Below, piece by piece: positions 1 to 4,591 of a stretch of DNA of 4,591 nucleotides. Within the stretch, counting starts at the first letter, position 1; every line of letters starts with the position of its first letter. The DNA is taken from the IMG/VR virus record IMGVR_UViG_2579778535_000001, positions 1 through 4,591 of that record; one strand, given 5' to 3'. Source of the DNA: a virus. Lineage: Duplodnaviria > Heunggongvirae > Uroviricota > Caudoviricetes. Under the pieces are notes generated by a model. The model saw only the letters and a list, made by a program, of their open reading frames with translations, searched no databases and had not been told where the DNA came from. Made by a program: the position numbers and the translations under genes.

Positions 1-81
1 TCCAGTGATTAACACAGATGCTATAGCAATAGCCCCGCCACTTATCGCCGCTATTACGCTATTTCGTAGTGCCGGTGACAT
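1..81 (-). CDS. SAR-type endolysin, N-terminal fragment (gene continues beyond the left edge of the window)
   Basis: Minus-strand ATG at 81..79, in a different frame from the holin and overlapping its last 23 nt. Translation to the window edge is MSPALRNSVIAAISGGAIAIASVLITG, a Gly/Ala-rich signal-anchor-release style N-terminus like that of phage 21 R (recalled, not searched). Missed by the ORF track because it runs off the window. Confidence 0.7.
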   Translation of the reverse strand, partial: MSPALRNSVIAAISGGAIAIASVLITG

Positions 82-262
82 TGCCATTCAATCTGTCCTC
101 GCGCTCTTTGCGCTTGTAGTACCAGTTGATGCCAAATGTGCCGACAGTACAAAGAATACCAATGATGACAGCCCAGTCATTCAGGGAGAGAATGCCACCC
201 ATCGCAGTCAGTCCTCCGAAGCTGTAACTGAACCATTCTCTGATTTTGTCCATACGGTACAT
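59..262 (-). CDS. Phage holin, class II / pinholin-like (67 aa), with possible dual start Met1/Met4
   Basis: The 67-aa ORF starts MYRMDKI, has two Gly-rich hydrophobic segments (FSYSFGGLTAMGGILSL and AVIIGILCTVGTFGINWYY) and a highly charged C-terminal tail (KRKEREDR...). It lies downstream of Q, PR' and tR' in the same orientation and directly upstream of a SAR endolysin start. Purine-rich SD-like sequence (GAAGGGG) lies upstream of the ATG. Confidence 0.8.
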   Translation of the reverse strand: MYRMDKIREWFSYSFGGLTAMGGILSLNDWAVIIGILCTVGTFGINWYYKRKEREDRLNGNVTGTTK

Positions 263-506: not shown

Positions 507-582
507 TGGTGCTGGTTAACGGACTTGAACCGCTACCCATTCGCTTACAAGGCGACTGCTCTACCATTGGAGCTAAACCAGC
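507..582 (-). tRNA. tRNA-Thr (anticodon UGU), 76 nt with encoded CCA
   Basis: Manual cloverleaf on the minus strand: acceptor GCTGGTT/AACCAGC (7 bp), D stem GCTC/GAGC, anticodon loop CTTGTAA (TGT), T stem AGCGG/CCGTT with T loop TTCAAGT, 3' terminal ACCA. Anticodon stem has one G-A mismatch at its top. Confidence 0.8.
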
Positions 583-587
583 ATATT

Positions 588-662
588 TGGCGGGACAGCG
601 TGGACTCGAACCACGATAAGAAGGTTAACAGCCTTCCGTAATTACCTTTATACGACTGACCC
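588..662 (-). tRNA. tRNA-Asn (anticodon GUU), 75 nt with encoded CCA; acceptor stem has a U4-U69 mismatch
   Basis: Manual cloverleaf on the minus strand: acceptor GGGTCAG/CTGTCCC (6 of 7 pairs), anticodon stem GAAGG/CCTTC, anticodon loop CTGTTAA (GTT), T stem CGTGG/CCACG with T loop TTCGAGT, discriminator G then CCA. Anticodon and T loops match E. coli tRNA-Asn as recalled. D stem is only 3 bp. Confidence 0.7.
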
Positions 663-894: not shown

Positions 895-936
895 TATCAT
901 GCCGTTAATATGTTGCCATCCGTGGCAATCATGCTG

Positions 937-1560
937 CTAACGTGTGACCGCATTCAAAATGTTGTCTGCGATTGACTCTTCTTTGTGGCATTGCACCACC
1001 AGAGCGTCATACAGCGGCTTAACAGTGCGTGACCAGGTGGGTTGGGTAAGGTTTGGGATTAGCATCGTCACAGCGCGATATGCTGCGCTTGCTGGCATCC
1101 TTGAATAGCCGACGCCTTTGCATCTTCCGCACTCTTTCTCGACAACTCTCCCCCACAGCTCTGTTTTGGCTATATCAACCGCACGACCTGTACCGTGGCA
1201 ATCTCTGCATCTTGCCCCCGGCGTCGCGGCACTACGGCAATAATCCGCATAAGCGAATGTTGCGAGCACTTGCAGTACCTTTGCCTTAGTATTTCCTTCA
1301 AGCTTTGCAACGCCACGGTATTTCCCCGATACCTTGTGTGCAAATTGCATCAGATAGTTGATAGCCTTTTGTTTGTCGTTCTGGCTGAGTTCATGCTTAC
1401 CGCAGAATGCAGCCATTCCGAATCCGGCTTGTGATTGCGCCATCCCCATAGCAGCCATCACATCAGTACCGGAAAGAGAGTCAGAAGCCGTAGCCCGTGG
1501 TGAGTCGCTCATCATCGGGCTTTTTGGCGAATGAAATTTAGCTACGCTTTCGAGTCTCAT
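937..1560 (-). CDS. Q: Late gene antiterminator Q, lambda type (207 aa)
   Basis: 207-aa ORF beginning MRLESVAKFHSPKSPMMSD with the zinc-binding CRDCHGTG ... CGRCKG motif; near-identical to lambda Q as recalled. Start ATG overlaps the ninH stop (ATGA). Confidence 0.95.
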   Translation of the reverse strand: MRLESVAKFHSPKSPMMSDSPRATASDSLSGTDVMAAMGMAQSQAGFGMAAFCGKHELSQNDKQKAINYLMQFAHKVSGKYRGVAKLEGNTKAKVLQVLATFAYADYCRSAATPGARCRDCHGTGRAVDIAKTELWGRVVEKECGRCKGVGYSRMPASAAYRAVTMLIPNLTQPTWSRTVKPLYDALVVQCHKEESIADNILNAVTR

Positions 1561-1745
1561 CGTCTTCCCTTTGTGCCTGGCGTGACCATCAGGACGCCGT
1601 TAACTATTACGTGACGCTCGCCTTTGCTGTCTCGGTCGTACTTGAGCACTGTTCCTCTTGCGCAGGAAAGCATCCTCGCCACTTCGGTCTGATTGCCTCG
1701 TGTCTGGATAAGAAGCTCTGGTATCGTTTGAATTGTGGCGTTCAT
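1557..1745 (-). CDS. ninH: NinH-like small protein (62 aa)
   Basis: 62 aa containing NQTEVAR...RGTV.KY...IVN.VLMV, conserved with lambda NinH as recalled. Sits immediately upstream of Q as in lambda; start overlaps the rusA stop (ATGA). Confidence 0.8.
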   Translation of the reverse strand: MNATIQTIPELLIQTRGNQTEVARMLSCARGTVLKYDRDSKGERHVIVNGVLMVTPGTKGRR

Positions 1746-2104
1746 GCGTTCTCCAGTTCGGTGATTTTTATTCCAAGCCTTCCGCCTGGTACTTTCACGC
1801 CACGAATTACGCGGATGTCATCGAATTGCTCGTCGTCTTCCGCAAATCCGGCGTGGATAAGGGAGTCGAGTAAACCTTTCAGGATGTTGTCGAGGTCGCG
1901 GCGGCGGGAGTCTGGAACGTCTGCGATGACTTTGATGCGGAGTCGTGATTTGGTGAAAATGTCTAACTTAAGTTGGCGGATTATTTGCTGTACATCTTTT
2001 CGGTATTTCTGGCCTTTATCGCTGATGTAGTATTGGCTTCCCCGTCTTCGCCAGTAGGTATTCAGCGACGGTGGGTACGGAAGTGTGAATCTGTATTCTG
2101 CCAT
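1742..2104 (-). CDS. rusA: RusA-family Holliday junction resolvase (120 aa)
   Basis: 120 aa with LPYPPSLNTYW, RRRDLDN and GGRLGIKITE motifs characteristic of RusA endonucleases, including the acidic residues of the RusA catalytic motif. Position equivalent to rusA in DLP12-like prophages. Confidence 0.9.
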   Translation of the reverse strand: MAEYRFTLPYPPSLNTYWRRRGSQYYISDKGQKYRKDVQQIIRQLKLDIFTKSRLRIKVIADVPDSRRRDLDNILKGLLDSLIHAGFAEDDEQFDDIRVIRGVKVPGGRLGIKITELENA

Positions 2105-2629
2105 TTATCCTCTCCCATGATTATGGTGATACCCCAATCGTGATTCCGCCAATTTTCTGGCATTAACGGCTAGAGATATGTCATCGTATAATCCAAGAAA
2201 TATCTTTTTATTATCACTGTTTATATATGCTCCCCACTTTTTATTCTTCTTATAGTAGGCAACACCCATTACTCCAGAGCGATTATTAATAGGCTTTTTT
2301 CTGTTCCTTGAGTTCTGTTTATCATCTACAACGCGCAAATTGCATATTCTGTTATCGCTTTTAATTCCATTTATGTGGTCAATTTCCCCATCAGGTTCGC
2401 TTCCATAAAAAGATATCCATGCGATTCTATGAGCTCGACAAACTTTTTTATTTACAGATATACGAACGTATCCCTTTTCATCTATAGAACCAGCAATCTT
2501 ACCGGCATATGTTGAATTCCAGCACTCTCTTACACTTTCTCTTCTTTTGTATATAAACAAACCTGTTTCGCTATTATATTCATACAATTCATTGATTTCT
2601 TTTTGTGTTGGATATCTTTTACCGTTCAT
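2105..2629 (-). CDS. HNH homing-endonuclease-like protein with C-terminal AP2-type DNA-binding domain (174 aa)
   Basis: Contains GYVRISVNKK...RAHRIAW...EIDHINGIKSDNRICNLRVV...QNSRNRK (HNH_3-type motif) followed by GVMGVAYYKKNKKWGAYIN...IFLGLYDD (AP2-like). Gene is markedly AT-rich by eye compared with its neighbours. Stop TAA is immediately followed by the rusA ATG; start overlaps the ybcO stop (ATGA). Confidence 0.9.
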   Translation of the reverse strand: MNGKRYPTQKEINELYEYNSETGLFIYKRRESVRECWNSTYAGKIAGSIDEKGYVRISVNKKVCRAHRIAWISFYGSEPDGEIDHINGIKSDNRICNLRVVDDKQNSRNRKKPINNRSGVMGVAYYKKNKKWGAYINSDNKKIFLGLYDDISLAVNARKLAESRLGYHHNHGRG

Positions 2630-2916
2630 GACTTAATCTTCCCCTCCTTCAGCAGTATCGCCTGCGTCCTGATCACGCCTTCGAGGTGGTAAAGTCTGGC
2701 GTCTTTGTTGTCGAGATTATGGGTGCGTCGGTCGATTTCATCGTGACACGCGCTACAAGCCCATGCGCCGATCAGGTCGTCAGGCTTCATTCCCGTTCCG
2801 CAAATTCCAGCCATCCGGTAATGTGCCAGAACTGTAGTTTCAGGGTTGCCATTGCATACGCCGTAAATACGTACCTGGCATTCTCTTCCGCGCGCTTCTT
2901 TGCGTAGGTTAGCCAT
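2626..2916 (-). CDS. ybcO: YbcO-like DUF1364 protein (96 aa), Cys-rich putative metal-binding protein
   Basis: MANLRKEARGRECQVRI..CNGNPET.VLAH.R..G.CGTG.KP.DL....ACSACHDEIDRRTH closely matches DLP12 YbcO as recalled. Good SD (GAGGGAAGG) upstream of the ATG. Confidence 0.85.
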   Translation of the reverse strand: MANLRKEARGRECQVRIYGVCNGNPETTVLAHYRMAGICGTGMKPDDLIGAWACSACHDEIDRRTHNLDNKDARLYHLEGVIRTQAILLKEGKIKS

Positions 2917-3121
2917 TTACCTTCCCTCGCAATTGAAGAATTGACTGAAGGTCTTTTTTAATAAATATGCGAGTGCGAATTGAGCAGTAGTTTTCCTTCA
3001 TTCTGGCGTAGTAATAGTCCTTTCTTTGCTTAAGTTTGTTGGCATCCGCTGTCATCCAGTCTTTTACAGCAAACTTAATTAGCCAGCGGTGGCAGAGATA
3101 CCATTTCAGGTAATCACTCAT
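2909..3121 (-). CDS. Hypothetical small basic protein (70 aa), AT-rich moron-like ORF of unknown function
   Basis: ORF with a strong SD (GAGGAAGAAG) upstream of its ATG. Start overlaps the ninF stop and its stop overlaps the ybcO start, so it is embedded in the translationally coupled operon. Trp/Lys/Tyr-rich; I recognise no family. Confidence 0.55.
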   Translation of the reverse strand: MSDYLKWYLCHRWLIKFAVKDWMTADANKLKQRKDYYYARMKENYCSIRTRIFIKKDLQSILQLRGKVNG

Positions 3122-3284
3122 CGTCTTCTTCCTCGTACATTGAGCTATTCGGATCGCTCATCAGTTCTGCGCAGCAATCGGAGCACACGTGAACTTCCAG
3201 CACATGCAGCTTCTGACCGCAGTTAGCGCACGTTAAAGCCCGCTCGACACTTTCTTGTTCGTAACTTCGATTTGGGTCAATCAC
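3114..3284 (-). CDS. ninF: NinF-like protein (56 aa) with CxxC...CC zinc-ribbon-like motif; probable GTG start
   Basis: C-terminal part of the 220-aa track ORF. Sequence [51 protein letters not shown] matches lambda NinF as recalled. GTG at 3284..3282 overlaps the ninE stop (GTGA) and has GAGGAAAA upstream. An in-frame ATG at 3308 is an alternative start but lacks an SD. Confidence 0.75.
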   Translation of the reverse strand: MIDPNRSYEQESVERALTCANCGQKLHVLEVHVCSDCCAELMSDPNSSMYEEEDDE

Positions 3285-3457
3285 CTTGTTTTCCTCATGC
3301 GGTTCCATTTGGCCTGTAACAGCCAGTAGACATAATCGAATGTCTTTACCTGGCTTTCTGTGGGGATTGGTTTCTTGCGGGATTTGGTGCGTTTGGTAGG
3401 AGTAAAAATCAGGTTGTCTAACGCTATTTGAGTAATACTTCGTCGCTGTCTCGCCAT
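3281..3457 (-). CDS. ninE: NinE-like protein (58 aa)
   Basis: Hand translation gives [58 protein letters not shown], resembling lambda NinE (MRRQRRSIT... basic C-terminus) as recalled. GGAGG SD 4 nt upstream of the ATG. Not in the ORF track because it is under 60 aa. Confidence 0.75.
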
Positions 3458-3479
3458 ACGTCCTCCGTTTCCTGCGGTA

Positions 3480-3701
3480 GTGGTAAAACTCCTGTTGGTG
3501 TTCTTTCACACCGGAGACACCATCGATTCCAGTAAGGCTGTCCTGGTCGAAAGCGATCGTCTTCCTTTCACCAGCGCGGAACGTCAGCGTCTGAAAGAGC
3601 TGGAACGTGAAAATCGTGAACTGCGCCGCAGTAACGATATCCTTCGCCAGGCTTCCGCTTATTTTGCGAAGGCGGAGTTCGACCGCCTCTGGAAAAAATG
3701 A
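3480..3701 (+). pseudogene. Remnant of IS3-family transposase orfA (5'-truncated); only the C-terminal leucine-zipper part is IS-derived
   Basis: C-terminal roughly 40 aa ([41 protein letters not shown]) match the C-terminus of IS629-like OrfA as recalled. The N-terminal roughly 30 aa have no HTH character and are encoded by phage-side sequence. Full-length orfA (about 108 aa) would have to start near 3375, inside ninE. Confidence 0.7.
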
Positions 3702-4591
3702 TGCCACTGCTGGATAAGCTGCGTGAGCAGTACGGGGTCGGACCGGTATGCAGCGAACTGCATATTGCCCCGTCAACGTATTACCATTGTCAGCAACAGC
3801 GACATCATCCGGATAAACGCAGTGCCCGTGCGCAGCACGACGACTGGCTGAAGAGAGAGATACAGCGCGTATACGATGAAAATCATCAGGTGTACGGTGT
3901 GCGTAAAGTCTGGCGTCAGTTGTTACGGGAAGGAATCAGGGTGGCCAGATGTACAGTGGCACGTCTCATGGCGGTTATGGGACTTGCCGGTGTTCTCCGG
4001 GGTAAAAAGGTCCGTACGACCATCAGCCGGAAAGCCGTTGCCGCAGGCGACCGCGTAAACCGTCAGTTCGTGGCAGAACGACCTGACCAGCTGTGGGTGG
4101 CTGATTTTACTTACGTCAGCACATGGCAGGGCTTCGTCTATGTGGCGTTTATCATTGATGTGTTTGCCGGATACATCGTGGGGTGGCGGGTCTCATCGTC
4201 TATGGAAACGACATTCGTGCTGGATGCGCTGGAGCAGGCGTTGTGGGCCCGTCGTCCGTCTGGCACCATCCATCACAGCGATAAAGGCTCTCAGTATGTG
4301 TCACTGGCCTATACGGAGCGACTAAAAGAAGCCGGATTACTGGCATCAACAGGGAGTACAGGCGACTCGTATGACAACGCGATGGCTGAGAGCATCAATG
4401 GTCTTTACAAAGCGGAGGTAATACACCGTAAGAGCTGGAAAAACCGTGCAGAAGTGGAACTGGCCACACTAACGTGGGTGGACTGGTATAACAATCGACG
4501 ATTGCTGGGAAGGCTGGGCCATACTCCTCCGGCAGAAGCAGAAAAAGCTTATTATGCTTCCATCGGAAACGATGATCTGGCAGCCTGAGTT
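3570..4591 (+). mobile_element. IS3-family insertion sequence (IS629-like), left end deleted; right end beyond the window
   Basis: orfA remnant plus intact orfB. No left inverted repeat or orfA 5' region is present. IS-like sequence begins about 3570-3580, directly next to phage ninE-upstream sequence. Window ends 3 nt after the orfB stop, so the right inverted repeat is not visible. Confidence 0.85.
3698..4588 (+). CDS. IS3-family transposase OrfB (DDE integrase-fold catalytic subunit, 296 aa), IS629/IS1203-like
   Basis: 296 aa with the DDE triad context WVADFTYV (D), HHSDKGSQY (D), [18 protein letters not shown] (E). ATG overlaps the orfA stop in the -1 frame, the standard IS3 arrangement. 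Strongly resembles IS629 OrfB as recalled. Confidence 0.95.

Follow-up and report, generated by a model that had tools for sequence, protein, structure and literature searches.

A conserved cassette gene of 70 codons between ninF and ybcO in the nin operon of lambdoid phages

Between ninF and ybcO in the 4,591-nt stretch of viral DNA analysed here (the window) lies a reading frame of 70 codons, orf70, and the question it raises is whether it is an acquired extra gene, a regular member of the operon or a chance open frame. An earlier note, made from the letters of the window, had taken it for an AT-rich, horizontally acquired moron that is expressed with the nin genes and cannot be assigned to a family. 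Our listing of open reading frames reproduced the minus-strand frame and its quoted translation exactly, and the junctions bore out what the note had said of its two ends. The orf70 ATG (3121-3119) and the ninF stop codon (3116-3114) both fall within ATGAGTGA, whilst the orf70 TAA (2911-2909) and the ybcO ATG (2916-2914) both fall within ATGGCTAA, giving overlaps of 8 nt with ninF and 8 nt with ybcO (Table 1). As for the strong Shine-Dalgarno sequence that had been reported, a usable GAGG does exist, but its spacing of 9 nt is at the long end of normal and the word 'strong' was generous.

The minus-strand genes of the window run in the order ninE-ninF-orf70-ybcO-HNH-rusA-ninH-Q and form the right-hand end of an early operon of lambdoid type. 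As befits a lambdoid nin-operon gene, orf70 is found between the replication genes and Q, shares the strand of its neighbours and is packed against them by overlapping stops and starts. The window's ninF shows 98% DNA identity to a segment of phage mEp043 that carries a 171-nt ninF. A frame of 220 codons with a TTG start (3114-3776, minus strand) was rejected as a gene, being a mechanical call that contains ninF only as its last 56 codons (residues 164-220 are those matched by Pfam and PHROG). No ninX is present between ninE and ninF in the window, a place where many related prophages have one.

Table 1. Features of the window, ordered by position
Feature	Position	Strand	Evidence or remark
67-aa holin-like ORF	59-262	-	beyond the tRNA genes
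tRNA-Thr(TGT)	507-582	-	downstream of Q, late-promoter region
tRNA-Asn(GTT)	588-662	-	downstream of Q, late-promoter region
Q	937-1560	-	
ninH	1557-1745	-	
rusA	1742-2104	-	
HNH_3 endonuclease gene	2105-2629	-	
ybcO / DUF1364 putative nuclease	2626-2916	-	Pfam YbcO PF07102, E 1.8e-44
3' junction ATGGCTAA: orf70 TAA within ybcO codons 2-3	2909-2916	-	sequence
orf70 (70-aa small basic protein gene, PHROG 3973)	2909-3121	-	ATG ORF and translation
5' junction ATGAGTGA: orf70 ATG within last codons and TGA stop of ninF	3114-3121	-	sequence
GAGG, Shine-Dalgarno-like, within ninF 3' end, 9 nt 5' of orf70 ATG	3131-3134	-	sequence
ninF, GTG start overlapping ninE stop as GTGA	3114-3284	-	Pfam NinF PF05810, E 6.8e-13; PHROG 672
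ninE	3281-3457	-	
IS3-family (IS1203-like) remnant, 5'-truncated, opposite to nin genes	3568-4591	+	99.8% identical to E. coli E2863 IS
ALIL frameshift pseudoknot inside IS remnant	3656-3772	+	

The translated frame could in fact be assigned to a family, since the whole of it matched the profile of PHROG 3973 (E 2.3e-52, 176 bits; residues 1-70 aligned with positions 1-70 of 70). That family is labelled 'unknown function', and the database entries for orf70 all read 'hypothetical protein' or 'unknown function'. The conservation in other genomes which the earlier note had named as a check was also found: 177 of the 5426 complete E. coli genomes carry an annotated orf70, the copies being 97-100% identical in DNA, with a 100% DNA match in E. 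coli E2863 (WP_001286917.1), and it is an annotated coding sequence in seven phage records, including mEp043 (gp60), vB_EcoP-720R6, vB_EcoP-683R2, S9-5 and ABTNLsp11242. Protein homologues formed 34 clusters at 90% identity, reaching down to 26% identity to the window protein and spanning seven to eight genera, with Escherichia, Enterobacter, Citrobacter, Leclercia, Serratia, Pectobacterium and Yersinia as sources. An exhaustive HMMER search of 1.84 billion representative proteins returned eight clusters at 50% identity, all from the orf70 family, which is thus small and restricted to phages of Enterobacterales.

The pattern of substitutions bears on whether the frame is a gene at all. Between two homologues, dN was 0.084 and dS 0.69 (dN/dS ~0.12), and between the window's orf70 and a 61%-identical homologue pN was 0.25 and pS 0.92, with synonymous sites saturated. 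Within the invariant C-terminal motif DLQSILQLRGKVNG (14 codons), nine synonymous and two non-synonymous differences were counted, placing the constraint on the protein, not the DNA; across 21 aligned sequences, W7, R12, W13, Y37 and D57 were invariant. A chance open frame in the spacer between ninF and ybcO would be in keeping with the shortness of orf70, the lack of a Pfam family and the low confidence of its structure models. Against this, synonymous sites are saturated whilst the protein is conserved, length and phase are maintained throughout the 34 clusters and their genera, and the frame is still open where orf70 is fused in frame to a DUF7301 protein. The substitution pattern refutes the spurious-frame explanation, to which we attach almost no probability, and comparison of homologues shows that orf70 is a genuine conserved small protein gene under purifying selection.

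The fusion just mentioned begins with the first ~43 residues from a DUF7301 protein and continues as orf70, entered at around residue 10 (protein P0003; positions 3001-3318 in loci L095-L097). It was observed in at least 23 contigs, in which orf70-ybcO directly follows replication/primase genes; ninB, ninE and ninF were not called between the primase genes and orf70 in these contigs and have presumably been deleted. A separate 9.7-kb contig (JAUVQU010000080.1), binned to a 'Cellvibrionaceae' MAG, has an orf70 of 99% identity within an E. coli-type ninE-ninX-ninF-orf70-ybcO-rusA-ninH array and is probably a mis-binned enterobacterial phage contig.

In the literature searched, no paper was found with the orf70 peptide string, with WP_001286917.1, or with ninF together with ybcO, and the papers mentioning mEp043 do not discuss gp60. 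The gene is not new, being on record as a hypothetical protein and as a PHROG family; to have spotted it correctly is an ordinary finding.

That orf70 is richer in AT than its flanks held for total composition, with a GC content of 0.399 against 0.503 in ninF and 0.529 in ybcO (Fisher p = 0.0027 against both flanks), a value that is only at about the 10th percentile among the 213-nt windows of the stretch. It did not hold at third codon positions, where GC showed no difference from the neighbours (0.49 against 0.54 and 0.57; p = 0.39), the deficit being located in codon positions 1 and 2 (0.39 and 0.31). When the protein was back-translated with the synonymous codon usage of the window's other nin genes, a GC of 0.431 was expected, whereas 0.405 was observed. 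The AT excess is therefore mainly an effect of amino-acid composition, coming from a protein rich in Lys, Tyr, Ile and Asn rather than from a foreign mutational background. The same test applied to the adjoining HNH gene gave a GC of ~0.35 (0.349-0.351) observed against 0.454 expected, and a GC3 of 0.287 against 0.541 expected. The compositionally foreign and truly acquired AT-rich gene of the window is this HNH gene, not orf70.

A moron, as Juhala and colleagues are said to have defined it in 2000, is an additional gene that brings its own promoter and terminator, is expressed from the prophage and often has an atypical composition. Both the start and the stop of orf70 lie in neighbouring genes, and its composition, unlike that of the HNH gene, is not foreign. 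From 900 to 3600, the minus strand showed no promoter-like (sigma-70) or intrinsic terminator site, and Rfam gave no match at the orf70 locus. Overlaps of the kind seen here are normal for nin genes, which are generally packed with ATGA-type stop/start overlaps (PMC8022706); the ninF/ninG overlap is 8 nt in P22 and 11 nt in lambda. With overlaps of this sort and no promoter or terminator of its own, orf70 does not strictly qualify as a moron and is best taken for an ordinary member of the pR delayed-early transcript.

If so, orf70 would be transcribed from pR by N-antiterminated read-through, its translation would be coupled to that of ninF, and ybcO would be coupled in turn to orf70. Given delayed-early transcription and coupling of this kind, the product would be expected only during lytic growth or induction, and not from a repressed prophage. 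The earlier claim that orf70 is expressed with the nin genes agrees with its embedding in the operon by overlaps on both sides, from which we infer co-expression.

Comparison with related phages shows that the slot within the ninF-ybcO module holds at least four unrelated, interchangeable cassettes, or none. Its occupants are orf70 (213 nt; mEp043), an 89-aa ORF (270 nt; mEp235 and SPN9CC), roi/ant (726 nt; HK97, HK022 and HK620) and Orf-101 (ST64T). Among the cassettes compared at sequence level, orf70, the 89-aa ORF and roi have a common start ATG inside the ninF tail (ATGAGTGA or ATGAATGA); the 5' junction is identical in mEp043, mEp235, SPN9CC and HK97, the HK97 version reading ATGAATGA, and homology with the window ends at gene boundaries in mEp235, SPN9CC and HK97. 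The slot was filled in all 60 of the records listed among the 63 phage records with both ninF and ybcO. Both genes were present in 815 E. coli genomes, about one fifth of which (177) carried orf70, whilst roi was the commonest allele of the slot in the sampled E. coli rows. Of 82 related loci taken from IMG/VR and GTDB, 79 had the order ninF-(HNH)-orf70-ybcO-rusA.

The earlier note had also proposed looking for prophages with ninF directly beside ybcO. One such empty slot was found in E. coli 17-07187 (locus L103, 1480-1540), where a 3' remnant of ninF ending in …TCAATGTACGAGGAATAAGATG runs directly into the ybcO ATG, and other phages carry the alternative cassettes. The remnant is ~40 nt long and closed by TAA, and the annotated gene upstream of it encodes a NinE-family protein. 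The ninF tail with its GAGG is located 5' of roi, of the 89-aa cassette and, in this empty-slot prophage, of ybcO itself.

The closest known system is mEp043, the gp60 protein of which (YP_007111560.1) is identical to that of orf70, with 97.7% identity in DNA and the context ninF-gp60-ybcO-rusA-ninH-Q in common. Relative to mEp043, the window adds an HNH gene between ybcO and rusA and an IS remnant upstream of ninE, and otherwise differs in nothing of substance. Roi (HK97 gp65, HK022 roi) occupies the same slot with the same operon coupling, starting at the same ATG in the ninF tail and ending at the ybcO ATG, but is an unrelated protein of 241 aa without sequence similarity to orf70. Published work describes Roi as binding DNA and as required for the phage to grow lytically on hosts defective in IHF, and its annotations include Roi protein, DNA-binding protein Roi and anti-repressor, or, in E. 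coli genomes, 'phage antirepressor KilAC domain-containing protein'. The 89-aa hypothetical protein of the same slot in the other phages (mEp235 gp51, SPN9CC_0035) has the first 10 nt of its gene, ATGAGTGATT, in common with orf70 because these are fixed by the ninF overlap. It has no detectable homology to orf70 (hhalign probability 0.2% for mEp235 gp51), and its gene ends in TAATG, not in the 8-nt overlap with ybcO. Like orf70, the small Nin genes of lambda and P22 (NinD, NinE, NinF, NinY, NinZ and NinH) are short, tightly overlapping and delayed-early, and their products are mostly of unknown function (PMC8022706). They differ in showing no sequence relationship to orf70 by Pfam or by hhalign (probability <= 0.1% for P22 NinY, NinZ and NinD), and orf70 gave no match above threshold to the named Nin families of Pfam (NinD/E/F/G/H/X).

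Close relatives therefore differ in whether they carry orf70, the 89-aa ORF, roi, Orf-101 or an empty slot, and the presence or absence of orf70 between near-identical phages shows that it is exchanged horizontally as a cassette. This part of the moron claim stood; what fell away was the autonomy and the foreignness of the gene, which lacks a promoter and terminator of its own and whose GC3 is not foreign. Cassettes would be swapped by recombination between homologous sequences, for which ninF and ybcO offer conserved flanks.

Distant homologues occupy the same position at 26-66% identity, and their surroundings raise the further possibility that the product is a dedicated partner (regulator, inhibitor or DNA-targeting subunit) of a downstream nuclease, NinG/Rap or YbcO with RusA, with translational coupling setting the stoichiometry. 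In six contexts, from metagenomic contigs, Citrobacter, Leclercia and Pectobacterium, distant homologues lie just before NinG. A Yersinia homologue (P0034) precedes YbcO immediately or with ~100 nt between them, where a 44-aa ORF was called in one of the two contigs, and another homologue (P0022) precedes, with an 8-nt overlap, a Metallophos gene that is followed by NinG. In the contexts examined, the next nuclease-type gene downstream was thus always NinG or YbcO, and the overlap of 8 nt in the window recurs in the homologues that directly adjoin NinG, whereas the upstream neighbour varies (NinF, NinE, NinB or a 151-aa ORF). A basic and helical protein would also suit such a role. However, both orf70 subfamilies pair with either of two unrelated nucleases, a phosphatase gene separates one homologue from NinG, the slot before ybcO can equally hold roi, the 89-aa ORF or nothing, and in lambda and P22 ninF stands directly before ninG. 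The nuclease linkage is therefore explained by conserved nin gene order. A specific partnership of orf70 with the downstream nuclease is unlikely, also because the divergent subfamily has not kept the high positive charge.

The orf70 protein has a mass of 8.7 kDa, a pI of 9.9 and a net charge of about +9.6, with no Pro and with 11 aromatic residues among its 70. In the divergent subfamily, the net charge is only +2.5 to +3.5; this lack of conservation weakens a simple idea of electrostatic DNA binding. A transmembrane protein was considered and rejected, the maximal 19-residue Kyte-Doolittle mean being 0.27 for orf70 and 1.24-1.39 for the most divergent homologues against a usual cut-off of ~1.6. 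AlphaFold2 runs with 8 and 11 sequences gave pLDDT values of 70.6 and 65.2 and pTM values of 0.29 and 0.30, and their topologies disagree, with one long helix at a pLDDT of 70.6 and four helices (2-25, 31-43, 45-50 and 52-68) at 65.2. These models are of low confidence and offer nothing usable beyond the prediction 'helical'. Distant homologues have insertions and deletions following residues 22 and 50, positions that suggest a three-helix layout.

Searches for known relatives gave, in Pfam, only noise below threshold (GNAT_C, which scored 18 bits where 22.8 was the cut-off, and DUF4973), no NCBIfam family above threshold for orf70, and only an APC coiled-coil at E 0.94 in a sequence profile search of the PDB. 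Foldseek returned no match at E 0.001 or better in BFVD and PDB, and PADLOC, the models of which cover defence and not anti-defence proteins, assigned orf70 and three homologues to none of its families.

Several of these observations would fit the reading of orf70 as an AT-rich moron of recent acquisition, with a product that serves anti-defence, host takeover or superinfection exclusion. Variable presence among near-identical phages, with unrelated alternatives in the slot, is the pattern of an accessory or counter-defence hot spot; the protein is small, basic and of no known fold; and total GC is below that of the flanks. We nevertheless consider this reading improbable. A delayed-early operon gene without its own promoter or terminator is not expected to be expressed from a repressed prophage, its AT-richness is accounted for by amino-acid content, and its family is old in enterobacterial nin regions, where the identities seen at the same position speak against a recent import. 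Superinfection exclusion, in particular, would sit poorly with a protein that has no membrane segment.

The explanation that we favour, and hold to be probable, is that orf70 is a real delayed-early nin gene of lambdoid/P22-like phages of Enterobacterales, carried as a swappable cassette and encoding an accessory binder. No test spoke against its gene-level part; its functional part, drawn from predictions, is weak. The product is most likely a soluble, basic, helical and non-essential protein. It would be all-helical, with no catalytic motif, and most likely acts early in the lytic programme as a stoichiometric binder of nucleic acid or of a protein from host or phage, in an accessory and dispensable role; the nin region itself has been described as non-essential (PMC8022706). 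A bolder proposal is that the family represents a new small helical early-lytic effector directed against host defence or repair, or a modulator of YbcO/RusA or NinG, the slot being a counter-defence hot spot with cassettes that are functional alternatives; we regard this as doubtful. For the question of a counter-defence or recombination-modulating role of the slot, mEp043, a deposited coliphage with E. coli K-12 MG1655 among its recorded hosts, is a tractable target. The locus also illustrates cleanly how mosaicism in lambdoid nin regions can follow gene boundaries: unrelated cassettes use one start codon, donated by the ninF tail, and in one prophage the slot stands empty.

Two further elements distinguish the window. 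The HNH_3 gene encodes 174 aa (Pfam E 1e-16; PHROG 99; 'homing endonuclease' in PADLOC) and its region (2084-2622) is an insertion of 539 bp when compared with mEp043 and HK97, in both of which ybcO overlaps rusA directly. HNH homologues in related loci were found at several nin junctions (ninF/orf70, ybcO/rusA, before ninE, and after ninH or Q), and this scatter suggests a mobile free-standing homing endonuclease. The IS remnant, which is without the first part of the E2863 element, lies 110 nt upstream of ninE. It has probably cut the nin operon off from pR and left the window's prophage defective, and it may block the expression of orf70 in this prophage.
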